From: Micrococcales bacterium
GTDB lineage: Bacteria > Actinomycetota > Actinomycetes > Actinomycetales > Cellulomonadaceae
DNA length: 64,000 bases
Assembly: GCA_009777345.1 (NCBI GenBank)
Contig: WRMB01000006.1
Coordinates: 25,286-89,285, forward strand
Direction: 5' to 3'
In this document: piece after piece, positions 33,448-53,080 of the stretch
Layout of the letters: each line of letters begins with the position of its first letter
How positions within the stretch are numbered: position 1 is the stretch's first letter
Translations under genes and position numbers: made by a program
The notes under the pieces: model-generated
What the model was told of the DNA's origin: nothing
Database searches by the model: none
Seen by the model: only the letters and a program-made list of their open reading frames with translations

Positions 33448-35688
33448 TCACGAAGCCCCCTGCCCGGCGCGCGCCGCCGCCATGTTTTCTGCCGTGCCTT
33501 CTACCGCCGCACCGTGGACGGTCGAACCCCAGGCCGCGGCGATGGACTCGTGCGCCGCCGCGACGACCGCCTCGGTGGTGATCCCCAGCTCGGCGAACAG
33601 CCGCTGCGGCGACGCCGACGCTCCGAAGCGCTCCAGCGACACCGCGCGGCCGTGGTCGCCGAGCAGCCGGTACCAGGGCATGGCGATCCCGGCCTCGACC
33701 GATACCCGGGCGCGCACCTGCGGCGGCAGCACCTGGTCCCGGTAGGCCGGGGGCTGTTCGTCGAACCACTCCAGGCAGGGCACCGAGACCACCCGGGCGG
33801 CGACGCCGTCGGCGGCGAGCCGTTCGCGGGCGGCCACCGCCAGGGCCACCTCCGACCCGGTGGCCAGCAGCACGACGTCCGGTGCACGCCCAGTGTCTTC
33901 GGCGGGCAGCCCGGAGCCCAGCACAGGGGAGCCCAGCACAGGGGCGTCCAGCAGGGTGTAGGCGCCGCGGGCCACGTCCGCCGGGGCGTAGCCGTCGGTG
34001 CCACGCGGGAACGTCGGCACGTCCTGCCTGGTCAGCACCAGGGCGACAGGACCGTCGTCGCGGCTGAGCACGGCGGCCCAGGCGGCGGTGGTCTCGTTGG
34101 CGTCGGCGGGGCGGACCACCGCCAGCCCGGGGATGGCCCGGTAGGCGGCCAGGTGCTCGACCGGCTGGTGGGTGGGGCCGTCCTCGCCCAGGCCGATCGA
34201 GTCGTGCGTCCACACGTACACCACGCGCGCTTCCATCAGCGCCGCCAGCCGCACCGCCGGGCGCATGTAGTCGGCGAACTGGAAGAACGTGCCGCCGTAC
34301 GGCCGCGTCAACCCGTGGAGCCAGATACCGGACAGGATCGCCCCCATGGCGTGCTCGCGGATGCCGAAGTGTATGGTCCGCCCGTAAGGCTCACCGGGCC
34401 GCTGGGCCGACGACCGGGCCGTGGGCAGGAACGACGGTTCGGCGGTTATCGTCGTGTTGTTCGACCCGGCCAGGTCGGCCGAACCGCCCCACAGCTCGGG
34501 CAGCAGGGGGGCCAGGGTGTTGAGCACGGTGCCGGACGCGGCTCGGGTCGCGAGGTCCTGGCCCGCCTCGAAGACGGGCAGCGCCTCGGCCCAACCGTCG
34601 GGCAGCCGCCGGGCGACCAGCCGGTCCAGCAGCGCCTTGCGCTCGGGGTGCGCCGCCGCCCAGGCGTCGAACGACGCCTGCCAGACCGCCCGGTCGGCCG
34701 CGGCCCGGTCGCGCAGGGCGCGGGTGTGTGCCAGCACGTCGTCGGCGACGACGAACGTCGCGTCCGGGTCGAACCCGAGGGTCTGCTTCAGCCCGCGCAC
34801 CGCCGCGGTGCCCAGTTTCGCCCCGTGGGCCGAGGCGTCGGCGGTCTTGCCCGGTGTCGGCCAGGCGATGAGGGTGCGCAGCGCGACGAACGACGGTCGT
34901 CCGGTCTCGGCCTTCGCCGCGTCGAGCGCCGCCGCCAGGGCGTCGACGTTTTCGCGGTAGGTCCCACCGTTACTGGTCGGGTCGGTCCAGTCGACGGTCT
35001 GGGTGTGCCAGCCGTACGCGGCGTACCGGGCGACGACGTCCTCGGTGAACGTGATCTGAGTGTCGCCCTCGATGGAGATCTGGTTGTCGTCCCAGATCAC
35101 CACGAGGTTGCCGAGCTCCTGGGTACCGGCCAGCGACCCGGCCTCGGCGGTGACGCCCTCCTCGATGTCCCCGTCGGAGGCGATGACGACGATGTGGTGG
35201 TCGAAAGGCGAGGTGCCCGGTGCGGCGTCCGGGTCGAGCAGGCCCCGTTCGCGCCGCGCGGCCATCGCCATGCCCACCGCCGACGCCAGGCCCTGGCCCA
35301 GCGGCCCGGTGGTCATCTCCACCCCGGCGGTCAGCCCGTGCTCCGGGTGGCCCGGGGTCAGCGAGCCCCAGGTGCGCAGCGCCTGCAGGTCGGCCAGCTC
35401 CAGGCCGAACCCACCGAGGTACAGCTGCACGTACTGGGTGAGCGCGCTGTGCCCGCAGGACAGCACGAACCGGTCCCGGCCCAGCCAGGTCGGGTCGGCC
35501 GGGTCGTGCCGCAGCACGTTCTGGTACAGCAGGTACGCGACCGGGGCCAGGCTGATCGCGGTGCCGGGATGGCCGTTGCCGACCTTCTCCACCGCGTCGG
35601 CGGTGAGCACCCGGGCGGTGTCGACCGCCCGCAGGTCCAGATCGGTCCAGCCCACGTGCTGGGCGAGCGGCGCCTTCACTCTCTCCAA
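33448..35688 (-). CDS. tkt: Transketolase
   Basis: GHPG, DRFVLSCGH, TPGHPE, TTGPLGQG, SDGDIEEG (TPP motif), FGIREH, THDSIGLGEDGPTHQP. Confidence 0.97.
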   Translation of the reverse strand: MERVKAPLAQHVGWTDLDLRAVDTARVLTADAVEKVGNGHPGTAISLAPVAYLLYQNVLRHDPADPTWLGRDRFVLSCGHSALTQYVQLYLGGFGLELADLQALRTWGSLTPGHPEHGLTAGVEMTTGPLGQGLASAVGMAMAARRERGLLDPDAAPGTSPFDHHIVVIASDGDIEEGVTAEAGSLAGTQELGNLVVIWDDNQISIEGDTQITFTEDVVARYAAYGWHTQTVDWTDPTSNGGTYRENVDALAAALDAAKAETGRPSFVALRTLIAWPTPGKTADASAHGAKLGTAAVRGLKQTLGFDPDATFVVADDVLAHTRALRDRAAADRAVWQASFDAWAAAHPERKALLDRLVARRLPDGWAEALPVFEAGQDLATRAASGTVLNTLAPLLPELWGGSADLAGSNNTTITAEPSFLPTARSSAQRPGEPYGRTIHFGIREHAMGAILSGIWLHGLTRPYGGTFFQFADYMRPAVRLAALMEARVVYVWTHDSIGLGEDGPTHQPVEHLAAYRAIPGLAVVRPADANETTAAWAAVLSRDDGPVALVLTRQDVPTFPRGTDGYAPADVARGAYTLLDAPVLGSPVLGSGLPAEDTGRAPDVVLLATGSEVALAVAARERLAADGVAARVVSVPCLEWFDEQPPAYRDQVLPPQVRARVSVEAGIAMPWYRLLGDHGRAVSLERFGASASPQRLFAELGITTEAVVAAAHESIAAAWGSTVHGAAVEGTAENMAAARAGQGAS

Positions 35689-36067
35689 CCACCTTCCACG
35701 CCGTCACCGGCGTTGTCGTCACAGGGTCGTCGTTGTGCTGCTGTCGTCACGACTGGCAGCGTGCTGCTCTGCGGCGCTCCTGGGCAGCACCCCTGGCCGT
35801 CTGGGAGCACCTTAGCCCCGAGCCCGGTCTGCGGCTTGTCCGGGTCCGTACAGCGGACGGTGGGTGGTTGAGGAAGGGACCGAAGGCCTGGCCGACCGGC
35901 CGGTGGGCGGCGCGTCCGGAACGTCGGGAATGTCCGAGGCAGGACGAGTGATGTGGTTAGGCCGTCTGTCGGACGTTTTTCCGGGGGCGCCCGTCGGCCG
36001 GGGGTGCTGGGATAGTTTTTTGGGCTTGTCGGTCCGAGACGCGGGCCATGAGCGTCGAGGACGGGTA

Positions 36068-36296
36068 ATGAGCGTGCGGCAGTGGGCGGACCGGGCAGTG
36101 AGCATGCTCGTCGTCGTGGTTCTGGTGGCCTCGGGGCTGGCGGCGGTGTCGGTGGTCTCGGGTGCGGGGGTGGCCCCGGCGGCGGCGGTCCCGGGGCCGG
36201 TCTCGGTCGTCCCGACGGCGGTGTCGCTGGAAGCGGACCGGATGGTGTTCGCGGTCGGCGAGCAGGTGACGCTGACCGCGACCCCTGACCAGGACG
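36068..36296 (+). pseudogene. N-terminal remnant (signal peptide + start of a beta-rich domain) of a large secreted RHS-type protein
   Basis: MSVRQWADRAVSMLVVVVLVASGLAAVSVVSGAGVAPAAA|VPGPVSVVPTAVSLEADRMVFAVGEQVTLTATPDQD in host-like GC, then an abrupt switch to lower-GC toxin sequence in another frame. Confidence 0.6.
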
Positions 36297-36623
36297 ACTG
36301 CGAACACCGCGGCTCGCACGTCAGGGAGCCTGACCGACCTTCGCATCGCCGCGCAGGCTGCGGATCGCAATGGCCTGACACAAGTTGGACGCGCTCTGCA
36401 GAAACACTCGGGACGTGGGGGCAGCGTGTTCGAAGGCATGTCAACTGGCAGTGCGACCGCACGGAACGAACAGGGTCTTCGGGTGCTGGACGATATTCTC
36501 AGCGATCCAAACAGGCGCACCGAGGTACTGGATCGTGTGACGAACATCTAGGACTCACAGGGTCGCGGTGTTCGTTATGGCAATGACGGGTCGTTCATGG
36601 GATTCTTGGAGCCGATCAGATGA
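36297..36623 (+). pseudogene. Toxin C-terminal domain 1 (RALQKH...GFLEP type) with internal stop
   Basis: My translation: TANTAAR...DRNGLTQVGRALQKHSGRGGSVF...RNEQGLRVLDDILSDP...TNI*DSQGRGVRYGNDGSFMGFLEPIR. In-frame TAG at 36549-36551; terminal TGA overlaps the next ATG. Confidence 0.7.
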
Positions 36624-36826
36624 AAATGTACAAACTTCTACTGGTAAGCGCTGTCGGAGACCGCGATGGCATGGCGCTTGAACTCGCAACAGAGTCTGGT
36701 GAGCAGGTTGCCGAAGTTTTTATGGACGATCTTACGGGTGCTCGAACCGTTAGATTCTACACGGACCATCCCGTACCGCTAGATGTTGTGACGTGGCTTC
36801 TTTCTGAAGCTGCAAGGCGATTGTGA
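36620..36826 (+). CDS. Putative immunity protein for toxin 1
   Basis: 68-aa acidic ORF with ATGA overlap to the toxin stop: DRDGMALEL...VAEVFMDD...VVTWLLSEAARRL. Confidence 0.65.
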   Translation: MKMYKLLLVSAVGDRDGMALELATESGEQVAEVFMDDLTGARTVRFYTDHPVPLDVVTWLLSEAARRL

Positions 36827-36875
36827 AACCGTGAAAGAGGTGGCCAAACTGGCAAGGGTGATGTATGGGAATTGA

Positions 36876-37031
36876 GGCAGCAGCGGCGCCACCTGGTCGG
36901 CGGCCGAGGGTACGTGCACCGTGAAGACCTCGTTCCAAAACTCAGATGGAGTGATCGTGACGGCCCATCGCGGTAAAAGTTATGATGATCTGGCTGGCAG
37001 GGCAAGGAACAACGGGTGGTCAGGATGGTAG
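36876..37031 (+). pseudogene. Toxin C-terminal tip 2 (fragment)
   Basis: ...TSFQNSDGVIVTAHRGKSYDDLAGRARNNGWSGW*. No start codon; its stop overlaps the DUF2283 ATG. Confidence 0.45.
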
Positions 37032-37189
37032 AATGTTCGCTTGTGTATACGTACGACAGAGTCGCAGACGCCTCCTATATTTACATGCGCCCGTTCGAGC
37101 CGGATTCGCTGGCAAGGACCGGTTTCGCGGACATCAGAAGGGCGACAACGTTGGATTCAATGTTAAGGATTCTCGGAGGAATACAGTGA
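37025..37189 (+). pseudogene. DUF2283 protein, N-terminal half
   Basis: MVECSLVYTYDRVADASYIYMRPFEPDSLART matches the YD..ADA.YI start of DUF2283. Similarity ends at about 37132. Confidence 0.65.
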
Positions 37190-37521
37190 CAAAGAAGGAG
37201 CAGGAAATCCATGCTCGCTGGGCCAACAGTATCCCGTCGAATCGCGACACGGGAGACCCGTGCTATCGAGAGGAGTGGTATCTCGAGCAGTGTGGGAACT
37301 GTCGTCACTGGATCTCTCTGGAGGGCCCTCTCGGTGCCGACTGGGGAGTTTGTTCGAACGGCGATTCGACGCTTGACGGTCACGTAATGTTTGAGCATGA
37401 CGGATGTGATTCGTTCGAGACGGCGACTGGGGCTTCTGATGGGAAAGACGACGTTCTTGGGCCTACGGAGTGCACGCCGCCTCGTGGAGATGATCATCGG
37501 TCGAGGAACACCATTCTATGA
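37186..37521 (+). CDS. DUF3027-like Cys-rich protein (orphan immunity-type); C-terminal tail probably read-through
   Basis: RBS GGAGGA; QCGNCRHWISLEGPLGADWGVCSNGDSTLDGHVMFEHDGC. Confidence 0.65.
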   Translation: MTKKEQEIHARWANSIPSNRDTGDPCYREEWYLEQCGNCRHWISLEGPLGADWGVCSNGDSTLDGHVMFEHDGCDSFETATGASDGKDDVLGPTECTPPRGDDHRSRNTIL

Positions 37522-37654
37522 CAGGAGCGGAGTCCCGAAGGTACGATGGGATGCAGGCGTTACGACGGGCGTCGGTCCTGACGGCTCACGTCTGACGGGT
37601 ATGATTGCCTCGTACTCCAGTAAGGGATGGCATGGCTGGCCGACGAACCTCTGA
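37439..37654 (+). pseudogene. Toxin C-terminal domain 3, Ntox50/EndoU-like (fragment)
   Basis: GKTTFLGLRSARRLVEMIIGRGTPF...VRWDAGVTTG...TGMIASYSSKGWHGWP resembles the terminal YS..G.H..P motif of polymorphic toxin type 50. Confidence 0.5.
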
Positions 37655-38124
37655 GTGGGATGTTATCAACCGGTTCCTGGTGCTGACGGTTGGGAGTCAC
37701 CGCGGGAACTGGTCGCTCGGCCGTGCGCGACAAGCCGCTTTCGATGGTATCATGGAACAACCTAGCGACGGAACTCATTGGCGGTGAGATGAAGGTCGTC
37801 ACAGACTCGAACACGAACACCTCGTGCGTTTTCGAAATCGGACCTCACGGTGACGTGCTATATCTATCAACCGTGCTTCCATTCTTTACCACGTGGTCCG
37901 GCTCCGAGTGCTTGGATCAGTGCCCCAGCTGGGCAAACCTGTTCACTGTCTGCGGGTTCTCGTACCTGGGGTCTGTCGTCACGCGGACGTTGAGCCCGTA
38001 CAAAGACAAGGAAGCCGGGCGCAGGCTCACCTACTTTGAATTACTGTTCGAATGGACGGAAGGATCGGACGGCCCGACCCAGCAGAGATTAGTAGACCCT
38101 TGGGCTTCGTACGGTGCACTGTAG
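37627..38124 (+). pseudogene. Putative immunity protein for toxin 3 (in-frame TGA at 37684 if started at ATG 37627; otherwise intact from 37690)
   Basis: Overlaps the end of the toxin 3 frame; aromatic-rich, no recognisable family. Confidence 0.45.
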
Positions 38125-38474
38125 TGACGGTGATTCTTTGGGGCGGCAAGGCGACGAAGGGCGCAGATGATGGCGTCTCGCTGTTCAAGGCTCCGCAGCG
38201 CGGTCTAGGACGAGACCAGTTTGAGAACGGATATCGATCCGAGAATTTCCCAGGGAATGACGCCCACTTCGCACGTGAACGTGAGATTGCCGACAGTTAT
38301 GCTGTCCACTACGGCGAAGGAGTCGTCGAGACGCGCATTCCGCGAAGTGTCAATAACGAGCACTTCGCATCATACGAGATGAGGTATCTGGGATCTCCGC
38401 CCGGAACGGAACTTGCAGTACCTCCTGGAAAACTTCCGTTCCTCAGTTCGTTCGAGAGGGTGCGGCACCAGTGA
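38124..38474 (+). CDS. Orphan toxin domain 4, ADP-ribosyltransferase-like fold (inferred)
   Basis: Linker GGKATKGADDG, then SLFKAP...AHFA...IADSYAVHYGEGVVETRIP...GTELAVP. The strand and Glu pattern is ART-like. GTG overlaps the upstream TAG; the frame is open. Confidence 0.55.
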   Translation: MTVILWGGKATKGADDGVSLFKAPQRGLGRDQFENGYRSENFPGNDAHFAREREIADSYAVHYGEGVVETRIPRSVNNEHFASYEMRYLGSPPGTELAVPPGKLPFLSSFERVRHQ

Positions 38475-38719
38475 TGATGCACGATCCAGTTCTGCGCCTT
38501 GTTCGGGGCGTCGTCACCCGTCACGAGGCGTATGGCTTCTATCTCGACTTTGATGAGCCGGTGGAAGGGCTAGTAGTAATAACGATGGTCGTCGATGATC
38601 CACATCTTGCGAACCCGGACTTCCCTCCCGTCGGTGCGATCGTGGAAGCCGCGCTGCTCGGCTATGCCGAGGGAACCGGGCAGCCTCGACTGAGTACCCG
38701 GCCGGCCGATCTCGCGTGA
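38471..38719 (+). CDS. S1/OB-fold protein, putative immunity for toxin 4
   Basis: VRGVVTRHEAYGFYLDFDEPVEGLVVITMV...VGAIVEAALLGY...RLSTRP follows the S1 consensus; start overlaps the toxin stop. Confidence 0.7.
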   Translation: MMMHDPVLRLVRGVVTRHEAYGFYLDFDEPVEGLVVITMVVDDPHLANPDFPPVGAIVEAALLGYAEGTGQPRLSTRPADLA

Positions 38720-38770
38720 TATGTCGTGAAAACGCGATGCGCATGCAGTGCGACACCCTGGAGCCGAGCA

Positions 38771-39214
38771 ATGAAGTACCTGCACCCCGACACCTGTAGG
38801 ATCGACGATCCGGAGGTTGCTGATGACGAACTCGCTATACTGAAGATCGTCGTCGACGGTGAGGAGATCATCGCATACGGGCTGCACGGCGCCATCAGGA
38901 AAGCCTCTTGCTTTCTCCAAGGTGCGTGGCGTGCGGACCGAACACCGTCGCTGTATACTCTCCGCGGGGACGGTTGGGAGGTCCTGATGTGGGAGATTCT
39001 GATAGAGTCGCGGCCCAAGGCTGCCGCTCTGGATGTGTCGATAAGGACCACACTGTTTCGACTAATTCACTCGGGTTGCCGTGTTGCCTGGATAGGTGCT
39101 GAGGGACTGTCGTTCTGTGATCCATACCTGGGGTGGACTGCCGACTATGGGCAGGACAGTGGGGAGCGACTGGACTACATCAGATCGAGAACACACGTGG
39201 AGTTCGGGCTATGA
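38771..39214 (+). CDS. Hypothetical protein (orphan immunity-type)
   Basis: Open ORF in the array with no preceding toxin tip; stop overlaps the next ATG. Confidence 0.5.
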   Translation: MKYLHPDTCRIDDPEVADDELAILKIVVDGEEIIAYGLHGAIRKASCFLQGAWRADRTPSLYTLRGDGWEVLMWEILIESRPKAAALDVSIRTTLFRLIHSGCRVAWIGAEGLSFCDPYLGWTADYGQDSGERLDYIRSRTHVEFGL

Positions 39215-39561
39215 ACATCCGATCCATCATTCTCTCCGCGCTACCTCTGAACATCAGCGGTGTTGAAGTAGTGGATCCGGTCGTCACGCTGTTCGGCGAA
39301 GACTGGTCGCTTAATCTGATGTGTCCTTGGAAATTTGAAGATGCTGAGTCGTCTTTCTCGTGGGAGTCAGAATCCGTAGATCGGCGTGCGCGAAGTCTGG
39401 TAGGGCGTAAAATTGAGAAATTGATCGCCGGGGCGGAGGCGATTGACCCGGTTTTCTGTCTCTCTGGCGCTGCCTATCTTTCCATTTATGCCGATACCGA
39501 CATCGATCCCTGGACTCTGGTGATACCAGGATCCATAATTACTGGAAAGAAAGCGGGTTGA
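39211..39561 (+). CDS. Hypothetical beta-rich protein (orphan immunity-type)
   Basis: LFGEDWSLNLMCPW...LVGRKIE...DPVF...LSIYADTDIDPWTL; ATGA-coupled. Confidence 0.6.
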   Translation: MNIRSIILSALPLNISGVEVVDPVVTLFGEDWSLNLMCPWKFEDAESSFSWESESVDRRARSLVGRKIEKLIAGAEAIDPVFCLSGAAYLSIYADTDIDPWTLVIPGSIITGKKAG

Positions 39562-39576
39562 GGTTTGCGCCTCGGA

Positions 39577-39741
39577 GACGTTCAACTCGACCGAGCCGCG
39601 ATTGTGGTAGATTTTACAGAGGAAGGGAGAATGGTAGGGCTCGAGATTCTAGACGCTAGTAGGGTGTTGCCTGCACTGCTCATGAATGACACGTCTGGTG
39701 ATGACCCCGGATCCAGGCCAAGAACCCAGGAGCGACCCTAG
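39577..39741 (+). pseudogene. DUF2283 protein, C-terminal half
   Basis: My translation DVQLDRAAIVVDFTEEGRMVGLEILDASRVLPALL matches the DUF2283 C-terminal consensus (vDfd..G..vGiEil.AS..lp). No N-terminal half here. Confidence 0.7.
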
Positions 39742-40262
39742 TGAAGCAGATGTGGTCAAAATGCATCAACCTACCCGTCGGCGATGTATTGGTTGGTATT
39801 CACTACGAGTTGACGCGGTGGGAAACGCCGCCTTCATCGGAGTCGCCCGTCGATGAAGTTTGGGTCGCGTTGACACTACACTGGCAGGCCTCGCCCGCGA
39901 CACGAATCTCCTGCTCTGCTGACACCCAGCGAGAGGGTCTGGTTTCGGGTGGGCCAAGGGAAGGCGACCCCGGGCCAGACACTGAGACCACCGATGTGTC
40001 GGAACGTTGGCATTGCTTAATGGGAAAACGTTTGGAGGAATATTCCTTCTCGCACTCCGATTCTCCCACATTCTTGCCGTGGGCAGTGAAACTTCGTTTC
40101 GCCTCCGGTGAACATCTCATCATCTCGTTGGGCGAATTACTGCCTGATGGTCCGGGTTACATGCCGGACTCTCTGCTGGTCACCGACTCACGTGAGGTCG
40201 CTCATGCCCTACGTCCACAAGCCGCACTAGGCACTGCCTGGGGGGATGATGATAAACAGTGA
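39741..40262 (+). CDS. Hypothetical protein (orphan immunity-type)
   Basis: 173-aa open ORF, TAGTG-coupled; WAVKLRFASGEHLIISLGE...YMPDSLLV. Confidence 0.6.
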   Translation: MKQMWSKCINLPVGDVLVGIHYELTRWETPPSSESPVDEVWVALTLHWQASPATRISCSADTQREGLVSGGPREGDPGPDTETTDVSERWHCLMGKRLEEYSFSHSDSPTFLPWAVKLRFASGEHLIISLGELLPDGPGYMPDSLLVTDSREVAHALRPQAALGTAWGDDDKQ

Positions 40263-40440
40263 TTTTTCTACAGGGGCCCTCGTGATCGCTCGCAGCATTC
40301 TGAAGATAGTCGACGGCGGTGAAGAGGTGCAAGGCCCCGCAATCCGAGCCGACAACCTTGCGGAGATGGTAGATGGTCATGGTCATAACGCGTGAAGAAC
40401 TCGCTGCAGCGATCAATGAGACGTCGCTGGTGGGCAGCCA

Positions 40441-40743
40441 ATGACCGAACCGAACCCCGCCGACGCTTACGAGCGGTGGCAGGACGCCTACGAAACCGTG
40501 TGGCAGCACCCGACACGCCTGACGGCGACGCCGTGCCCGAGTTGTGGGCATCTAGACCTGAGGCTGCTCTTCGTGGCCTTTTCGGGCTCGTCATCTGCCG
40601 TGATGCCTGCCTTCTGGTGTGACGCGTGCCGACGGGGACTCCCACCAACGCGGGGCGTCCTGCCGCCGTGGGCGACATCGGTACAGTGGGAGTCTGTCGA
40701 CCTGCCCGACTATCGCCTGGTGGTGCCAGAGGAGTCGGAGTAA
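40441..40743 (+). CDS. Small zinc-ribbon protein (putative immunity)
   Basis: CPSCG...FWCDAC (two CxxC pairs), 100 aa. Confidence 0.65.
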   Translation: MTEPNPADAYERWQDAYETVWQHPTRLTATPCPSCGHLDLRLLFVAFSGSSSAVMPAFWCDACRRGLPPTRGVLPPWATSVQWESVDLPDYRLVVPEESE

Positions 40744-40744
40744 G

Positions 40745-40810
40745 CGTCAGGAGTACACGATCGTGCGGGACTGTTTTGGCGGACTGGTGACAATACACCC
40801 TGGGAGGTAG
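40745..40810 (+). pseudogene. Very short toxin C-terminal tip (fragment)
   Basis: RQEYTIVRDCFGGLVTIHPGR* resembles terminal Y.vV.D..G.++T.HPG motifs of RNase-type toxin tips. Confidence 0.35.
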
Positions 40811-40814
40811 GGGC

Positions 40815-41096
40815 GTGCCAATTACTGTAGTACTCAGACTGGTCGTCGTGGTGGTGACTGGTGCCTGGGGTGCGGCGGGTCCTCTGGCGCGGTCTGGTGG
40901 GGTCGGTGGGCAGTACGACTATGCCTGGGGCGACGACGGTCAGGTCGTGTCGGTGGTGTTCCCCAACCAGGTCACCACCGCCTGGGACTACGACGATGCC
41001 GGGCGAGGTAAGCCGAACAGTCGGGGGCAGACCGTGGTAGTTCGGGGTGCTGTCGTTGACGGCGTCCCGCGTGCTGGGACGGCGTTCACTCCATGA
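40815..41096 (+). pseudogene. YD/RHS repeat remnant fused in-frame to the last ~29 aa of a toxin tip
   Basis: QYDYAWGDDGQVVSVVFPNQVTTAWDYDDAGR (YD repeats) joined to GKPNSRGQTVVVRGAVVDGVPRAGTAFTP*. Confidence 0.7.
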
Positions 41097-41443
41097 CTGT
41101 GAACCCGATTCCGCCGCTAGTGTTGGATCTCATCGAGTCTATCATCAATCACCTTCCCGAAGCGGATCGCTCAGTCCTCCTTGCCCAAGCACGATCGGCG
41201 GATGTCGTAGAGGAGATTCCGGGTCGAGCGATCGATTTTGTCGTGAATTCGGACGCATCGCGTTCGTCGATACCAGATGGACCTGTTCGACCGATCCCCG
41301 CTGTAATGAGGCAAGATGGGCGGCTAGTTGGGGAGGTGATCCTTTGGATCCGGTCGGGCTACATCATTGGCCTGGAACAGCCTTGGTTTGGCGAATCTCC
41401 TATTGAGTTGTGGCCGAGGGCGAGCGACTTGGACTTCCCGTGA
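41093..41443 (+). CDS. Putative immunity protein
   Basis: ATGA-coupled; DGRLVGEVILWIRSGYIIGLEQPWFGESPIELWP. Confidence 0.65.
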   Translation: MTVNPIPPLVLDLIESIINHLPEADRSVLLAQARSADVVEEIPGRAIDFVVNSDASRSSIPDGPVRPIPAVMRQDGRLVGEVILWIRSGYIIGLEQPWFGESPIELWPRASDLDFP

Positions 41444-41571
41444 CAGAGCCTGCGAGCAGTTATGCCAATCCTCGGGGAAGGCCTGCAATCCGAGCTGGCA
41501 CGACGGTCGTCTCACGCACCAATACTGTCCGTGCGGTTGCGAACGAGCACAGTTTGATGATCCACGCGCGG

Positions 41572-41770
41572 ATGGATAAACTCATCAATGCTGATAGGGG
41601 TTATATTGGCGGCAGTAGTTTTACCGGCGGGACAACAGGCCACGCAGCGCAGCGCATCGCCGAAGCAGGTCTCGACGATCTCGATGCTCGATGTTGCTAT
41701 TCTCCGCGCAGGCCGATCACTCGAACAGGCAGACGGTGCCACTGCCTTCGTGACCTCTGCAGGAAGGAAC
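41572..41770 (+). pseudogene. DUF4258/colicin-like RNase toxin fragment, frameshifted by a 7-bp duplication
   Basis: GGTTGHAAQRIAEAGLDDLD. Removing one copy of CTCGATG (41680-41693) restores ...DLDVAILRAGRSLEQADGATAFV. Confidence 0.55.
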
Positions 41771-41789
41771 ACCGGCTTCGGCGGCATGA

Positions 41790-41951
41790 CGCAAAGCACG
41801 TGGCTTCACCGTCGACGCGGTCGTCGCGGCGACAGCGCTCGCACTGCCTGCCCCGGTGCTGGTCGTCACGGCAGATCCAGGCGACCTGTCGCTCCTGCTC
41901 GACGGCACGAACGTCACCGTCAGAGCTATCGCGGACGGCGCGACGAGTTGA
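41790..41951 (+). pseudogene. C-terminal half of a PIN-domain protein
   Basis: My translation GFTVDAVVAATALALPAPVLVVTADPGDLSLLLDGTNVTVRAI matches the DA.vAA.A...vvT.D..Dl PIN C-terminus. Confidence 0.6.
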
Positions 41952-42033
41952 CGGTAGCCACACCGCCTGGCGCGTCGGGGGGCCTCGGCCCTGCCTGCGC
42001 GGGGGAGTGAGAAGCGTGCCCTAGCCTTCGTCC

Positions 42034-42996
42034 ATGACCACTGCTACGTCCGAGCATCTGGACGTGCTGGCCCGGTCCCTGGAGACGTACCTGACGCATC
42101 TCGCGGTGGAACGTGGCCTGTCGGCCAACACGCTGGCCGCGTACCGTCGGGACCTGGTTCGCTATGTCGCCTATCTGCGCGGCCGGGGGGTCGGCGCGCC
42201 GGACGGGGTGGACGAGCGGGACATCGAGGAGTACGTCGTCGTGGCCCGGACCGGGTCCGACGGGCACGCGCCGCTGGGTGCGGGGTCCTCGGCCCGGGCG
42301 GTGGTCGCGGTGCGCGGCTGGCACCGCTTCCTGGCCGCGGAGGGCCTGACCGCCGACGACCCGGCCTGCCAGGTCCGCCCGCCGTCCCAGCCCCGGCGGC
42401 TGCCCAAGGCGATCACCGTGGACCAGGTGACTCGGCTGCTGGCGACAACCGAGGGCGAGGGCGCGTGCCGGATGCGCGACCGGGCGCTGCTGGAGCTGCT
42501 GTACTCCACCGGGGCCCGGATCTCCGAGGCCGTCGGGCTGGACGTGGACGATATCGACCTGACCGCGGACCGCGCCGCCGTGCGGCTGCTCGGCAAGGGC
42601 GGCAAGGAACGGGTGGTGCCCGTCGGCAGCTACGCGGTGCGGGCGCTGGAGGCGTACCTGGTGCGGGCCCGTCCGTCGCTGGTCGCGGCCGGACGCGGTA
42701 CCCCCGCGGTGTTCTGCAACACCCGCGGCGGTCGGCTGTCGCGGCAGAGCGCCTGGCAGGTGCTGCGCCGGGCCGCGGTGCGCGCCGGGCTGCCCAACGC
42801 CGAGCACATCTCGCCGCACACGCTGCGGCACTCGTTCGCCACCCACCTGCTGTCCGGCGGCGCGGACGTGCGGGTGGTCCAAGAGCTGCTGGGTCACGCC
42901 TCGGTCAGCACCACCCAGCTGTACACGCTGGTCACGGTGCAGGGCCTGCGGGAGGTCTACCTGGCCGCCCACCCGCGGGCGGTAGAAGCCCGGTGA
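42034..42996 (+). CDS. xerD: Tyrosine recombinase XerD
   Basis: [72 protein letters not shown]...TQLY; upstream of parA-scpAB. Confidence 0.93.
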
Positions 42997-48503: not shown

Positions 48504-49186
48504 GCGCGCCGCAGGCCCCGAGCCGCTGGGGGCCGGTGTGGGCGCGCTGGGTGGGCTGGTTCATGCTCCGGGTGGTGTGGCGGGCCCGTCCGGTCGGCAA
48601 GGACCGCGTGCCGCGGACCGGCCCGGTGGTGCTCGCCGCGAACCACGTGCACTGGCTGGACGGCCCGATGCTCATCGGGCTGGCCCCGCGTCCGTTGCAC
48701 ATCCTGGTCAAGCAGGAGATGTTCCACGGTTTCCTCGGTCTGGTGATGCGCGCCGCGGCGCAGATCAAGACGGACCGCTCCAACGGTCGCCAGGCCCTGG
48801 CGCAGGGCCTGGCGGTGCTGCGGCGCGGGGGAGCGGTCGGTATCTTCCCCGAGGGCGAGCGCGGCTCCGGCAAGGTCGAGTCCGCCCGGGCAGGCGCCGC
48901 GTGGCTGGCGGTCCACGGCGGTGCGCGCGTCGTCCCCGTGGCGATCCTCGGCACCCGTCGCCCTGGTCAGGGCAAGGACCAGATGCCCCCGCCGGGCCGC
49001 CGTTTCGTCATCGAGTTCGGCGAGCCGATCGACGTGACCCGCGACGACGTCCCCCGCCGCGAGGCCGTCGCCGAGGCGGCCGAGACCATCCGCGCCGCGA
49101 TGGCCGCCCTGGTCGCCGAGGCGTCCGGACGCACCGGTCTGGGTACCGGCGCCGACTCGGCGCCCGGCCCGACGACCTTGGACTGA
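48500..49186 (+). CDS. Lysophospholipid acyltransferase (PlsC family)
   Basis: NHVHWLD (HxxxxD), IFPEGER, VVPV. Confidence 0.9.
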   Translation: MSAPQAPSRWGPVWARWVGWFMLRVVWRARPVGKDRVPRTGPVVLAANHVHWLDGPMLIGLAPRPLHILVKQEMFHGFLGLVMRAAAQIKTDRSNGRQALAQGLAVLRRGGAVGIFPEGERGSGKVESARAGAAWLAVHGGARVVPVAILGTRRPGQGKDQMPPPGRRFVIEFGEPIDVTRDDVPRREAVAEAAETIRAAMAALVAEASGRTGLGTGADSAPGPTTLD

Positions 49187-49234
49187 ACTTGACTAGACCA
49201 GATTAGGACGCCTAGAATCTAGTCTGACCAGATT
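49186..49234 (+). promoter_or_regulatory. Sigma70-type promoter and operator repeats of the phd-vapC operon
   Basis: TTGACT(49189)-N18-TAGAAT(49213). Near-palindrome AATCTAGTC-T-GACCAGATT (49216-49234). Half-site GACCAGATT is repeated at 49196. Confidence 0.7.
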
Positions 49235-49251
49235 GAGCAAGGAGGTGTCGG

Positions 49252-49512
49252 ATGCATGCCGACGCTGTGAGCGTCTACGAGGCGAAGACCAACCTGTCCA
49301 GGCTCATCGCTCAGGCCAAGGCCGGATTCCCCTTCGTCATCACCAGCCACGGCAAGCCGCAGGTGATCGTCCAGGCGGTTGACGCAGGCCAGGCGGAGCG
49401 CAAGCCGCAGCGGACAGGGTTTCTCAAGGACGAGCTCAAGGATTTCCGGCTGCCCGACGATTTTGATACGATGATGCAGGACGAGATCATCTCCCTGTTC
49501 GAAGGGGACTGA
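49252..49512 (+). CDS. Phd/YefM family antitoxin
   Basis: VSVYEAKTNLSRLIAQAKAG..FVITSHGKPQ, C-terminal PDDFD; RBS AAGGAGG. Confidence 0.9.
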   Translation: MHADAVSVYEAKTNLSRLIAQAKAGFPFVITSHGKPQVIVQAVDAGQAERKPQRTGFLKDELKDFRLPDDFDTMMQDEIISLFEGD

Positions 49513-49522
49513 GGGGGCGCAC

Positions 49523-49909
49523 GTGGATCTTCTGCTCGACTCAAACATCATCATCCTTGCCGCCGGGGGTAGCCTGTCAGAGGACGTCACGGCGCTGGTC
49601 GAGTCCGAGCACAATCGACTCTTCTTCAGCACCGCGGCCTACTGGGAGATCTCCATAAAGTACGCCAGCGGACGGCTTGCACTCCCGATCGAGCCGTGGC
49701 TGCTCGTCGACGCCCTTGTGAAGAACGGATACCGTGAGGTCCCGATAGGACGCAAGCACGTCTACACGCTCAGCAGCATCGCCGATGTTCACAAGGATCC
49801 GTTCGACAGGATCATGGTGGCTCAGGCCATCGCTGAAGACATGCTGCTCCTCACCACTGACGCTCTCCTGCACGGCTACGGCCAGAACGTGAGAGTCGTC
49901 AGAAAATGA
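49523..49909 (+). CDS. vapC: VapC/PIN-domain toxin
   Basis: LLLDSNII, YWEISIK, HKDPFDRIMVAQA...LLTTD. Confidence 0.92.
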   Translation: MDLLLDSNIIILAAGGSLSEDVTALVESEHNRLFFSTAAYWEISIKYASGRLALPIEPWLLVDALVKNGYREVPIGRKHVYTLSSIADVHKDPFDRIMVAQAIAEDMLLLTTDALLHGYGQNVRVVRK

Positions 49910-50014
49910 GACCAATTCCTGGGGTGACGGTGACGAGAAAGTGATCGTGATCGGATGCCGCGGCGGCACACTGCGGTCGTCCCGCCCGGATCATCATGCC
50001 TAGTGATCGCCTGG

Positions 50015-50821
50015 TCAACTCCAGTCGAAGGTGAGTGCGGCGGTACGAGTCTCGGGTTCGAAGAACAGCAGGATCTGGTCGGCGCCTTGGTTCCGCCAGG
50101 GGTATCCGGCGGTGCCTCCGATGTAGGTGAACGGTCGGCCGTCGGCCAGCCGGAGCACCGGAGCTGCCGGATCGCTCGAGTCCAGCGCGAATGCTTTGGG
50201 CGGAGGGAACTCATGCCAGTTGCCGTAGCCGGGCTCACCGCCTATCTCGTCGACGAGGGCGATATCGGTGCCCCAGCTTTCGCGCTGCCGGGTGGGATCC
50301 TGCGCGTCGCCCCAGACCAGGGCACCGAGCCGCTCCCAGCGTGCCTTGGTGCCTGTGAACTCGGCGTCGGCTGCGGCGTATGTCTCGTACAGCGCACTCG
50401 GGTCTTCTTGCTCACCCGACGCTTCCATGTCCTCGATCTCGAAGAACCGCCGCTGCCCGAGGAACCGGTAGCGGCCGTCGTTCTCGACGTGGAACGAGAT
50501 CCAGTTCTCGCAGGCGAAGTCGTCGTGGTGCGCGGAAGTGTCCTCGCCCAGCAGGCCCTCCTCGGGCTCTACAGGGCTCAGCAGGTGCACACGGCCGCTC
50601 CACGCCGGGTCGAACGCGGTCAGTTCGACAGAGACGAGCGGATGAAGCAGTCGGACGAGCCACGGCTGGTCGTCGACGAACACCTCGGCGGGATCAGGCA
50701 GCACGACGACCCGCGGGTCCGGGGCGATGATGCGCTCGCCGTCGTCAGGGTCACGCACCGGTTCCGCGAGCAGGTGCTGAGGGAGAGGATAGGGGCGGGC
50801 ATCCGCAGCGAATTCATCCAC
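50015..50821 (-). CDS. Conserved hypothetical acidic protein
   Basis: Coding part of ORF 50015..51073 from GTG 50821: LHPLVSVEL...WSGRVHLLSPVEP.EG...ENWISF...RYRFLG...GEPGYGNW...TFDWS. No function recognised. Confidence 0.65.
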   Translation of the reverse strand: MDEFAADARPYPLPQHLLAEPVRDPDDGERIIAPDPRVVVLPDPAEVFVDDQPWLVRLLHPLVSVELTAFDPAWSGRVHLLSPVEPEEGLLGEDTSAHHDDFACENWISFHVENDGRYRFLGQRRFFEIEDMEASGEQEDPSALYETYAAADAEFTGTKARWERLGALVWGDAQDPTRQRESWGTDIALVDEIGGEPGYGNWHEFPPPKAFALDSSDPAAPVLRLADGRPFTYIGGTAGYPWRNQGADQILLFFEPETRTAALTFDWS

Positions 50822-51137
50822 CGCGCCGATCCTACCTTGTGAGGACGCGAGACTACCGCGGCTCGACGATGTCGCATACGGCCTCCGGGAACAGCTTGCC
50901 GACGGTCGTGGCCGACGCGACCGCAGCACGACCCGAGACCTCGCCGAGGGCGTCCTGGGACAACCCGGTCTGAACCTTGCTGGCTTGGCCCTCCTGAAGA
51001 GACGCCGGAGCATCGAGGGGCGGCACGCCGGGCCGCAGCAGGGGCCACCGTGGGACACGTTGTGGTCCCACACCGAAGCATTATGTGAGTCTCGTCGGAC
51101 CCTCGCACCACAGCCGCACCGAGGTTATACTGAGTTC

Positions 51138-52190
51138 ATGGTATTAAGACCGATGAAGCGCGTTCCCACTCTCGACGGACTCGACCTCTACCGGCGGATC
51201 GACTCGCCCCGCACGGACCAGGCCGTGAACGACCCGGAACGGGTGGATGCGGTTGTCAAGGAGTTGCGGCAAGGCGTAACTGAGGCACTGGCAACGCCGA
51301 CGACGGTACAGGGCTGGCGCGCACAAGCATTGTTCGCGTCGATGGTGGTGGCACTGGACGGCTGCACGATGATGACGCAGGTAGATTTGGGAGAAATATT
51401 TGCAGACGGCGACCCGGTAAAGGCACCAGACTTCTTTTTGCACTTGCGCGACGGTAGGCGAATTCTTGTAGATGTTAAGAGTCTGCCGAAGTCCATAAAG
51501 GATCCCGTCAAGTTCACAAAGAGTGAGGTGGCCCGACTCCGGCGGTTTGGAGAGTTGTACGGAGCGGAAGTCCACCTAGCCCTGTACTTCTCCAGCATGT
51601 CGATGTGGCTTCTAATATCGATCGACGACCTGTCTCCTGGACCAGGAGGTGGCCTCCGGATCACTATGGAGAAAGCGTTGATGCGCAACGACATGGCCGC
51701 TATCAGTGACTGGACCATCGGCGTAGAGCCGCCGTTGGAGTTGGTACTCCATCCAGACCCTTCATCAGAAAACCGAATCACCGAAGATGGTCGCGCGGAA
51801 TTTAGGGTGGGGAGTGTAGAGGTCCGCGCTGGTGGTCGCAGGGTATACACCAAGGAGGACCAGCAGATTGTATGGTTCCTGATGATGTATGGTAAATGGA
51901 GCCAATCGGAGCATCTGCGCATAGAGGGGTCAAAACTGGTAAGCCTGACGTGGCGCGCCGAGCCGGAGGAGCGCGAAAATCTAGATCAGCGCTTTGAACT
52001 AGTCGGGTCTCTAGCATCAATGTACACGCAGTTTTTCGAGATCGGCACGAGGGGTGATGCGGGGATAATCGGACTGGACCTTCCCACGGAACCCGGGGCG
52101 ATGATCTCACTGATTCCCCATGACTATCATTCCGACGACCTACCGTTGTGGCGTTTTAGAATCGCACCTAGGACAGACCTTCCGAAATGA
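51138..52190 (+). CDS. Stand-alone PD-(D/E)xK nuclease-fold protein
   Basis: APDFFLHLRDGRRILVDVK (PD...DxK) in the N-terminal half; lower GC; TATACT at 51126-51131, 6 nt before the ATG (leaderless-type). Confidence 0.7.
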   Translation: MVLRPMKRVPTLDGLDLYRRIDSPRTDQAVNDPERVDAVVKELRQGVTEALATPTTVQGWRAQALFASMVVALDGCTMMTQVDLGEIFADGDPVKAPDFFLHLRDGRRILVDVKSLPKSIKDPVKFTKSEVARLRRFGELYGAEVHLALYFSSMSMWLLISIDDLSPGPGGGLRITMEKALMRNDMAAISDWTIGVEPPLELVLHPDPSSENRITEDGRAEFRVGSVEVRAGGRRVYTKEDQQIVWFLMMYGKWSQSEHLRIEGSKLVSLTWRAEPEERENLDQRFELVGSLASMYTQFFEIGTRGDAGIIGLDLPTEPGAMISLIPHDYHSDDLPLWRFRIAPRTDLPK

Positions 52191-52238
52191 GCACATAACC
52201 GGGACTGGATGCTACTACGCCCAGGGCCCTCGTCATGC

Positions 52239-52440
52239 CTACCGTCCCACCCTTACATCCGGCGGCTCCGGCGGCAGCAACGCCTCGACCGTCGTGCCGA
52301 GCACCTGCGCCAGGGGCGACGAGGTTCAGCAGCGTGGGGTTGGCGACGCGGCCGACGCGAGACTCGCCCTTCTCCAACTGGTGGTAGTAGCCCCGGGTCA
52401 GGCCAGCGGCATGGGCAACCTTCTCTTGGCTGAGGTCGGC
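52239..52440 (-). pseudogene. XRE-family HTH regulator remnant (5'-truncated, +1 frameshift)
   Basis: My translation ADLSQEKVAHAAGLTRGYYHQLEKGESRVGRVANPTLLNLVA / LAQVLGTTVEALLP. An extra C in GCCCCTG shifts the frame. Confidence 0.7.
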
Positions 52441-52916
52441 CTCACACCCAGTACCGAGCCGACCACACCGGACGCCAACTGATGAACCAAGCCGTTTTCG
52501 AAGCCATCTGGATCGGCGACGACAACATCGACGCTGCTCGAGTCCGACCAGGACTGGCCGAGTTGATCAGCACCGACCTGGACCAGCAGTTGGCCCACGA
52601 CGAAGCCGAGGCAGCCCAGTCCCGAGCCAGCGGACGAAGGTCGGGCGCGCTGACATGAGCACCGAACGAGCCAGAGGTCGCGCCGAGCGAGGCACGCGTT
52701 GCGTCCCATCGCACCTCGTCGCTGCCAGCGTCGGAACCGACACGTTGGCCGCCGAACTGGGCTTCCAGCCCGAGCAGACCGACCAACCGACCGCCGAGCA
52801 CGCGACCAACCTCTACGTCGCTCATCTCCTGCGTCACCGCAGGTCAGAGCGCATCCCGGGACACGAACAGAACCTCCGGCGCAGTCGGCGTGCCGGAGGT
52901 TCTAACAAGACAGTTC
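52440..52916 (+). pseudogene. C-terminal remnant of a large serine recombinase
   Basis: PHTQYRADHTGRQLMNQAVFEAIWIGDDNI (typical recombinase tail). After a frame change it continues ...GGSNKTVLVGLAGFEPAT, reading into the tRNA as tRNA-targeting recombinases commonly do. Confidence 0.65.
52870..52902 (-). terminator. Hairpin downstream of tRNA-Pro
   Basis: GAACCTCCGGC / GCCGGAGGTTC 11-bp stem with an 11-nt loop. Confidence 0.55.
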
Positions 52917-52993
<77 letters not shown>

Positions 52994-53080
52994 TGGTGCA
53001 CCGGTGGCCCGGCACGGCCAGCAACTCTACCGTGTCCTGGACCGTGGTGGCGACGTCTTATCCGGTCCGCGTGGCGGAGG

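Follow-up and report, generated by a model that had tools for sequence, protein, structure and literature searches.

Probable wreck of an RHS polymorphic-toxin locus with orphan toxin and immunity-type cassettes between tkt and xerD in a Cellulomonadaceae genome

We have analysed a 64,000-nt stretch of contig WRMB01000006.1 (GCA_009777345.1), referred to here as the window and the source of all positions given, in which an island between tkt and xerD holds fragments of RHS toxins and a series of small partner open reading frames (ORFs). Our preferred explanation, to which we give a probability of roughly 0.6, is that what remains in the island is a wrecked RHS polymorphic-toxin locus with its orphan cassettes, and that the contrast between toxins and partners needs no special selection because orphan tips form truncated, the cassettes look recent and point lesions are not significantly enriched in the toxins. 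A preliminary description made from the DNA sequence had seen here a collapsed RHS locus, or array of orphan tips and immunity genes, and this holds, as four of the tip and partner pairs are found in the toxin ORFs of relatives; the N-terminus, YD remnant, tips and small ORFs which it had placed on one strand are likewise supported by homologues. In what follows, G numbers denote relative genomes, L numbers homologous loci or contigs, and C numbers contigs.

The insertion is evident from comparison with the nearest relative found (G006, with 81–83% DNA identity), in which the tkt–xerD spacer is 110 bp. Window positions 35812–35860 align with that spacer and those from 42019 onward with xerD, and therefore the ~6.1 kb of extra DNA (~35.89–42.02 kb) has been inserted; at least 14 other genomes of the genus are also without the island at tkt–xerD, where the gap is 1.3–1.5 kb. 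The cassettes have a GC content at third codon positions (GC3) of 0.45–0.77 compared to 0.93 for host genes. All of the homologue-supported ORFs of the island are on the + strand, and no minus-strand ORF of at least 95 aa within it has a Pfam match. The island, the remains of the parent gene and the toxin remnants are listed here in order of position:

35890–42018 (approximate limits), + strand: inserted island, with a GC content of 55–61% against 72–75% in the flanks (composition profile)
36068–36296, + strand: N-terminus of the parent protein, 76 codons, with a signal peptide and the start of an immunoglobulin (Ig)-like repeat; GC3 of 0.94, host-like
36297–36622, + strand: toxin tip1, out of frame with the N-terminus, without a delivery part and with an in-frame TAG at 36549–36551
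36876–36935, + strand: Ig-like repeat fragment, in frame with toxin piece B and 85% identical over 20 aa to an Ig repeat of G006
36936–37031, + strand: toxin piece B, the last 31 codons of toxin A/B, in frame behind the Ig fragment
37437–37654, + strand: E, approximately the last 72 codons of a toxin tip, 5'-truncated and without a start codon
38052–38474, + strand: G, an orphan C-terminal toxin of the RHS type whose domain is complete, with an RPLGF trace and without a delivery part
40815–41096, + strand: O, consisting of a YD fragment (~40878–41020) and the last 23 codons of a toxin (41025–41096)
41464–41772, + strand: toxin piece A, the 5' two-thirds of toxin A/B, cut at 41770–41772 and joined there to a PIN remnant

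The delivery gene has been reduced to fragments. Its N-terminus is 78% identical in DNA sequence to the start of an Ig-repeat secreted protein on contig C45 of G006, which ends within the repeats, and the encoded protein also matches RHS ORFs of G083 and G082 in their N-terminal, Ig-repeat parts; the order of parts in the 1942-aa ORF of G082 is Ig repeats, YD repeats, the core end (...DPLGL) and a C-terminal toxin. The YD fragment of the window is 44–65% identical to the YD regions of intact RHS ORFs in relatives and matches Pfam RHS_repeat at 7.4e-4 (20.3 bits against a cut-off of 22), and positions 40932–41006 are the sole RHS_repeat match in the genome (98.6% complete, in 101 contigs). Judged by these similarities, the fragment is the remnant of an RHS shell, and no shell is left. 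The RHS core end survives only as the degenerate RPLGF upstream of G, which aligns with the DPLGL of relatives. Neither the Rhs core (TIGR03696) nor PT-HINT has a match anywhere in the draft genome which, together with the single RHS_repeat match, upholds the earlier observation that no intact RHS delivery gene remains. With no delivery part left in the island, and the RHS core and PT-HINT both missing from the draft genome, no toxin should be exportable. RHS matches are found in 71 of the 110 genomes of the genus, with the listed ORFs mostly 1200–2400 aa in length.

The tips of the window are homologous to the C-termini of full-length RHS or PT-HINT toxins, and by the same comparisons their downstream partners are putative cognate immunity genes. 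The pairs found in relatives as the end of a toxin ORF plus the downstream gene are tip1 and imm1 (a 2272-aa RHS ORF in G410), A/B and DUF2283 (the 1942-aa RHS ORF in G082), E and F (a 2640-aa PT-HINT ORF in G045), and G and H (1200–1800-aa RHS ORFs in Streptomyces and Amycolatopsis), and the adjacency of tip and partner is conserved in relatives for imm1, DUF2283, F, H and P. Intact RHS genes ending in these tips, which the preliminary description had suggested seeking in relatives, were found for tip1, A/B and G, with E located on the 2640-aa PT-HINT ORF. It had counted about seven different toxin tips; we recognise five types in six fragments (tip1, the E tail, G, the O tail, and A plus B, which make up one toxin). 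Its view that nearly every toxin is broken stands for most of them, which are truncated or lesioned, but not for G, the domain of which is complete.

Tip1 is 72% identical to the last 110 residues of the G410 ORF, 81% identical to a G177 tip located behind a PT-HINT-like end, and 44% identical to the end of a 2062-aa RHS ORF in G218. The nonsense codon noted earlier at 36549 is confirmed as the in-frame TAG, which is a sense codon in intact relatives. Tip1 aligns across the whole solved domain of PDB 6D7Y_A (E 1.2e-6), including the conserved xALxKHxGR, and 6D7Y is the CdiA-CT (C-terminal toxin) of P. aeruginosa PABL017, a BECR-fold tRNase (PMC9086364). On this alignment tip1 is related to the PABL017 tRNase and would share the BECR fold. 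The likeness of tip1 to the CdiA-CT/CdiI system extends over the whole toxin domain, but the tip1 family is carried by actinobacterial RHS/PT-HINT proteins rather than by CdiA, and the window copy is truncated and has a stop codon.

Toxin piece A is 43–64% identical to the C-terminal toxin of the G082 RHS ORF, and B is 60% identical to the end of the same toxin and 74% identical to an orphan tail in L135. A codon-level alignment, in which A ends ...SAGRN and B starts QNSDG with six codons missing between the two, indicates that they are complementary halves of one toxin, placed 4.5 kb apart and in permuted order. The 7-bp duplication reported in the preliminary description is present as a tandem repeat (CTCGATG twice, 41680–41693) and frameshifts A, and the junction between A and the PIN remnant is found in a second assembly too (L138). 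A possible likeness of toxin A/B to DUF4258 found no support in the sequence: the intact G082 homologue is without a Pfam hit at E < 0.05 and gave no PDB sequence match at E < 1, and DUF2283 is matched by the partner alone. E is 53% identical to the end of the G045 ORF, which terminates in PT-HINT and the E toxin, and 65% identical to the stretch just before an F homologue in L137, and the O tail is 78% identical to the stretch ahead of a P homologue in G237.

The G domain forms the tip of 1200–1800-aa RHS ORFs and was found in 18 named genomes, and the window copy retains all of the residues invariant across 21 aligned family members. Genomes with G and H (loci L115–L132) include Streptomyces, Amycolatopsis, Pseudonocardiaceae, Actinomycetaceae, Oceanospirillum and Thiomargarita. 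An AlphaFold model of G built from a 21-sequence alignment has a predicted local distance difference test score (pLDDT) of 88.4 and a predicted template modelling score (pTM) of 0.78, and the 50 matches listed in a Foldseek search of the PDB have the ADP-ribosyltransferase (ART) fold (KptA/Tpt1, the diphtheria toxin catalytic domain, the Rhs toxins TreX and TreTu, and tankyrase). Scores for the matches listed are weak in terms of E (4.5e-3 to 0.39), with a probability of 0.9–1.0 for the top ~40 and TM-scores of 0.38–0.56. G is predicted by this model to be an ART-fold domain.

The partners occupy most of the spaces between the toxin remnants and are as follows:

36620–36826, + strand: imm1, 68 aa, open, the partner of tip1, with an ATGA overlap with tip1 and a Shine-Dalgarno (SD)-like motif at -12
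37016–37189, + strand: 5' half of DUF2283, the partner of A/B; homology ends at ~37128 and the rest of the ORF is inserted DNA
37186–37521, + strand: D, Cys-rich, open, resembling the C-terminal part of DUF3027 (Pfam 1.1e-7), with an SD motif (GGAGG) at -11 to -9
37632–38124, + strand: F, partner gene of E, disrupted near 37744 by a 1-nt frameshift and lying in two frames
38471–38719, + strand: H, 82 aa, S1/OB-like, open, the partner of G, overlapping the G stop codon (Pfam S1 7.9e-4, below cut-off)
38771–39214, + strand: I, 147 aa, open, immunity-type, without a preceding toxin remnant
39211–39561, + strand: J, 116 aa, open, ATGA-coupled to I
39562–39741, + strand: 3' half of DUF2283 (Pfam DUF2283 7.4e-6), 60% identical to the G082 gene
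39741–40262, + strand: L, 173 aa, open, immunity-type
40441–40743, + strand: N, 100 aa, open, Cys-rich, immunity-type
41093–41443, + strand: P, 116 aa, open, the partner of the O tail, with an ATGA overlap with it

We count eleven supported partner-type ORFs, nine of them open with the conserved domain complete when compared to homologues and two broken (F and DUF2283). The open partner-type ORFs we name are imm1, D, H, I, J, L, N and P, with D included by position only. The earlier statement that most partners are open is thus borne out by the eight named ORFs but does not extend to F, which is frameshifted, or to DUF2283, which is split. The translational coupling it described is also seen, with seven stop/start overlaps in the array (ATGA, GTGA and TAGTG), and SD-like motifs precede imm1, D, F, I, J and L. 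Scans of all ORFs and their intact homologues against Pfam and NCBIfam returned only the DUF3027-like match, DUF2283, a weak S1, a weak RHS_repeat, and PIN (in a paralogue). H, I, J, L, N, P, imm1 and D belong to no Pfam-A or NCBIfam family (imm1 has no match in either database) and are mutually unrelated in sequence, and we infer their immunity status from gene neighbourhoods.

The neighbourhoods are closest for the partners of recognisable tips. Imm1 is 69–71% identical to 68-aa genes directly downstream of the tip1 homologues in G177 and G410, and the 5' half of DUF2283 corresponds to residues 1 to ~36 of the DUF2283 protein encoded behind the RHS gene of G082 (this G082 protein has a Pfam DUF2283 match of 7e-10). 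Full-length F homologues of 161–169 aa are found in ten relatives and cover 96–97% of the two window pieces when joined; F is intact in G010 and G016, and follows an E-type toxin in G045. In 17 of the 18 loci, the gene immediately 3' of the G domain is of the S1/OB type and, as judged by eye, has the motif pattern of H, and H itself is 55% identical to its G177 homologue and 73% identical to that in L114 (tblastn). The pairing of an OB-fold immunity protein with an ART toxin would be unusual. In G237 the same toxin tail is followed by a gene to which P is 40% identical, and P has more homologues in G272, G056, G010 and G016.

Of the remaining partners, I has a homologue immediately behind a small secreted toxin of G200 and others within the toxin/immunity arrays of G396, G216 and L112. 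J has at least 40 representative homologues of 110–130 aa with full-length coverage in HMMER searches (a word-index search returned J alone), and Barstar in the L135 array has a J-like gene behind it. L is 35% identical over 156 aa to a G237 gene directly downstream of a PT-HINT plus tip1-like toxin, and N, with at least 25 representative homologues, shares 50% identity with a member of the orphan array that follows a toxin in G004. D, a candidate immunity gene by its position only, belongs to a family with at least 60 small homologues of 90–130 aa, and its last ~28 codons are E-derived DNA, its native C-terminal end having been lost. Homologues of J, P and F are also found on both strands within 17 kb of the complete genome G016 (C1, 3,968–3,985 kb), with a mirror region in G010, and this may be a region of dispersed immunity genes.

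The array is a patchwork with at least 11 junctions in 6 kb, several of which fall within coding sequence. These are N-terminus|tip1, imm1 flank|Ig, Ig|B, DUF2283|D leader, D|E and F|G, followed by J stop|DUF2283, N flank|YD, YD|O tail, P|A and A|PIN. One block of cassettes lies inside the DUF2283 gene:

37129–39561, + strand: 2.4-kb multi-cassette block (D, the E tail, F, G, H, I and J) inside the DUF2283 gene, ending exactly at the J stop codon

A metagenome contig (L113) is 100% identical across 37413–39676, which includes the right junction of this block. No target-site duplications, inverted repeats or integron-like repeats were found at the junctions in a repeat search of 35700–42100, and no family of direct repeats >27 nt or above chance quality was found within the same interval. 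The ancestral order would have been a main gene ending in an O-type tip, then P, orphan A–B, DUF2283, L and N, and the present order (Ig|B...N|O-P-A|PIN) could have been reached either by a single translocation, within the locus, of the B-to-N segment or by a duplication followed by two deletions.

Related arrays have been cut in different ways. In L135/L136 (ENA ERZ27241893; Logan SRR4051758) an intact RHS gene ends in a different tip and has a DUF6959 partner, and the orphan array behind it includes a B-type tail, F with the first ~10 codons of DUF2283 joined to it, Barstar and a J-like gene with a frameshift. The 5' cut of the L135 tail falls no more than 15 codons from the A/B breakpoints of the window, and the A/B breakpoint region may be a recombination-prone spot. 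L114 (a Logan SRR23967709 contig of 3463 bp from a different organism, with ~73% DNA identity) is a second collapsed locus, in which a partial G has been joined to the same RHS N-terminus, and H, transposase/insertion sequence (IS) remnants, the E tail and the start of F come next. The L135 and L114 arrays therefore show that loci of this group have collapsed and been reshuffled repeatedly.

Under our preferred explanation, the locus would once have encoded a secreted protein of the Sec type that combined Ig-like repeats with an RHS shell, as still present in other species of the genus, which ended in a C-terminal toxin and was followed by its immunity gene and then by displaced orphan tip and immunity cassettes of foreign, lower-GC origin. 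Deletions and cassette insertions would have stripped away nearly all of the delivery gene and left the 76 N-terminal codons and the Ig and YD fragments. The partner ORFs, if transcribed, would perhaps be driven from the promoter region of the parent gene, and the only plausible output of the locus would be orphan immunity against neighbours with matching tips, such tips being found in the same genus and order. The array would then be transcribed, its products would neutralise toxins and it might be of some benefit, all of which we infer.

Several observations weigh against this explanation. The draft is in 101 contigs, so that an RHS gene might sit in an unassembled gap. The permuted A/B toxin and the block within DUF2283 are not accounted for by the usual recombination at the RHS core end, and a promoter and terminator scan of the stretch gave no usable signal. 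Finally, the proportion of partners counted as open (9/11) against that of toxins with a complete domain (1/5) is numerically suggestive of retention.

This last point leads to the conclusion of the preliminary description, in which selection keeps immunity and purges toxins. A selected immunity library of this type, with the partners retained as pre-emptive defence after loss of the delivery gene while the toxin fragments decay, is a tentative alternative and a good deal less likely than the wreck, though better placed than the others we considered. It would explain why nine of the eleven partner-type ORFs are open and keep their conserved domains, why the partners are all co-oriented, tightly packed and coupled, and why no toxin remnant precedes four or five of them (I, J, L and N), which is also the case in polyimmunity loci. 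Matching intact toxins occur in the genus and order, and such a role has been proposed, with adjacency to XerC/D noted, in two earlier reports (PMC3482391; 10.1101/471110).

However, F and DUF2283 are dead, and most of the damage to the toxins is 5' truncation, which is also the state of the orphan tips behind the intact RHS gene of L135, where the same pattern is found. When mutational lesions alone are counted, there are two in 1367 nt of toxin DNA and one or two in 3546 nt of partner DNA, and the toxin DNA is not significantly richer in point lesions (P = 0.19–0.31). In Nei-Gojobori comparisons of tip1, imm1, G, H and the N-terminus, the proportion of synonymous differences (pS) was 0.6–0.87 and saturated, so that the ratio of non-synonymous to synonymous rates (dN/dS) is uninformative. 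The proportion of non-synonymous differences (pN) was lower for tip1 (0.10) than for imm1 (0.20), with tip1 the more conserved of the two and no sign of faster toxin decay. The cassette GC3 is little adapted to the host and suggests a short residence; open frames may reflect recent arrival and need not indicate long retention. Selection for immunity as the cause of the contrast between toxins and partners is unsupported by the lesion test, the saturated synonymous sites, the GC3 values and the L135 comparison.

It is also conceivable, but unlikely, that G–H and perhaps other pairs act as an internal toxin–antitoxin (TA) module which stabilises the island, by analogy with the Salmonella orphan Rhs element reported as a type II TA module (PMC7043789). 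G is predicted from its model to be a complete ART-fold domain and all of its alignment-invariant residues are kept, H overlaps the G stop codon, and the G–H pair is conserved in 17 of the 18 loci. Against an active module, G is without an SD-like motif at either candidate start (none was found before either) and its 5' end is a truncated remnant of the RHS core, and the G homologue in G177 is frameshifted.

Slightly less probable again is the suggestion that the patchwork is a snapshot of active cassette capture and shuffling, and that the locus represents an integron-like or XerD-assisted immunity collector outside of the Bacteroidales. The hints in this direction are the blocks located inside genes, the differently cut arrays of L135 and L114, the A/B breakpoints six codons apart and the array abutting xerD.

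An assembly artefact, in which metagenome reads were mis-joined or a tandem duplication collapsed, especially at the permuted A/B toxin, is very improbable: although the draft seems to be linked to a metagenome (with JGI 3300002462 contigs 100% identical to it) and the A/B breakpoints are six codons apart, as a tandem or circular form would give, two shorter JGI contigs cross the J|DUF2283 and A|PIN junctions unbranched, which is therefore evidence against a collapsed tandem repeat, the A-end sequence occurs in only one metagenome stretch, there are no internal repeats able to mislead an assembler, and similar patchworks are found in unrelated assemblies (L114 and L135).

The wreck that we prefer is of a kind that is already known, with orphan cassettes and polyimmunity loci described since 2011–2012, and leaves current concepts unchanged. 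Orphan rhs-CT/immunity modules have been reported in E. coli, Salmonella and Dickeya (Poole et al. 2011, PMC3150448; Koskiniemi et al. 2014, PMC3967940). Like these loci, the island has variable C-terminal toxins with a putative cognate immunity gene after each, a lower GC content than the host, 5'-truncated tips with scraps of the core end (RPLGF before G and YD before the O tail), and signs of rearrangement by recombination. It differs from them in that the main rhs gene has been destroyed with no other RHS gene detectable in the genome, in that the parent is an actinobacterial Sec/Ig-repeat RHS protein rather than one linked to type VI secretion system (T6SS) PAAR/VgrG, and in that several junctions are inside genes and not at the boundary of core and tip.

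Heterogeneous polyimmunity loci, as described by Zhang et al. (2012, PMC3482391, section 39), include those of actinobacteria, are often found beside XerC/D and have been proposed to serve in pre-emptive defence, and the novelty earlier attached to the island as an actinobacterial acquired-immunity cluster is therefore overstated. In common with such loci, the island has at least four tandem, co-directional, tightly spaced and unrelated immunity-type genes, here the putative immunity genes H, I, J, L, N and P plus imm1 and D, with a content that varies among relatives. Unlike them, it retains the wreckage of a delivery gene and five toxin remnants which betray its origin as a toxin locus, its families all fall outside of the Pfam Imm, SUKH and SuFu families, and the adjacent xerD is a housekeeping gene.

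A third comparison is with rAID-1 of the Bacteroidales (Ross et al. 2019; 10.1101/471110), which has a dedicated 5' XerD-like recombinase and integron-like intergenic repeats. The two share a low-GC array of orphan immunity genes beside a co-oriented gene of the XerD family, but in the window xerD is 3' of the array and syntenic across the genus, repeats are absent (35700–42100), and the toxins are RHS proteins whereas those of rAID-1 are T6SS effectors of Bacteroidales. Membership of rAID-1 was rejected as there is no dedicated 5' recombinase and there are no integron-like repeats; the low GC does agree.

If the partners are expressed, the organism has abandoned RHS attack and yet may be resistant to at least seven toxin types of its relatives, which would bear on toxin "disarmament" and the evolution of cheating in communities. 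In a small space, the locus also brings together a number of toxin and immunity families outside of Pfam and NCBIfam. It includes the PABL017-like tRNase tip with its 68-aa partner, the E/F, O/P, I, J, L and N families, and the predicted ART-fold RHS tip with an S1/OB-fold partner which is conserved in Streptomyces, Amycolatopsis and some Gammaproteobacteria.

The remaining features of the island and its surroundings are:

33448–35688, - strand: tkt, the left neighbour of the island
40246–40395, + strand: M, a 49-codon ORF, unsupported and without an SD motif
41770–41951, + strand: 3' remnant of a PIN-like gene, 57–65% identical to the C-termini of ~135-aa paralogues on C43, C75 and C72
42034–42996, + strand: xerD, a housekeeping tyrosine recombinase, directly 3' of the array and co-oriented with it, with parA next

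M is probably not a gene, as only its own sequence was returned among the 150 matches listed in a search of 1.84 billion proteins. The preliminary description had taken the toxin locus to extend to 41951, but the last 180 nt are the PIN-like remnant, which has a host-like GC content and is not toxin DNA but lies outside of the toxin system (one of the PIN-like paralogues has a Pfam PIN match of 2.3e-4). This ~135-aa PIN-like family is present at host GC in at least eight genes, found on contigs C43, C75, C72, C1, C64 and C35 in addition to the window remnant, and a single 3' remnant of it forms the right edge of the island.

XerD is matched at 70–83% in all 30 of the relatives searched, and lies beside the tkt region without such an array in at least 15 of 18 genomes of the genus. 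The tkt–xerD gap of G016 holds ctaB, and a gap of the same size is seen in at least 13 further genomes of the genus; ctaB is not found at tkt–xerD in the source genome (window 35689–36067 and 42019–42033) or in G006. The uppS–dedA site, which is the one used in G006, was considered as the original location of the window RHS locus and rejected, with glyS sitting directly there in the source genome.

Two contigs of JGI metagenome 3300002462 are 100% identical to the window, L113 across 37413–39676 and L138 across 41129–42205, and the source genome is probably from the same community, as a bin or as an isolate. The same genome has a second polymorphic-toxin locus (C59:1240–5936) encoding a ~1150-aa multi-pass membrane protein with a Pro-rich linker and a CdiA_C tip (Pfam PF18451, 2e-15), followed by low-GC small genes which include a paralogue of N (36–39% identity), and therefore the organism has not abandoned toxins entirely. 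Within the window itself, 49000–53000 is a second stretch of lower GC content (58–67%).

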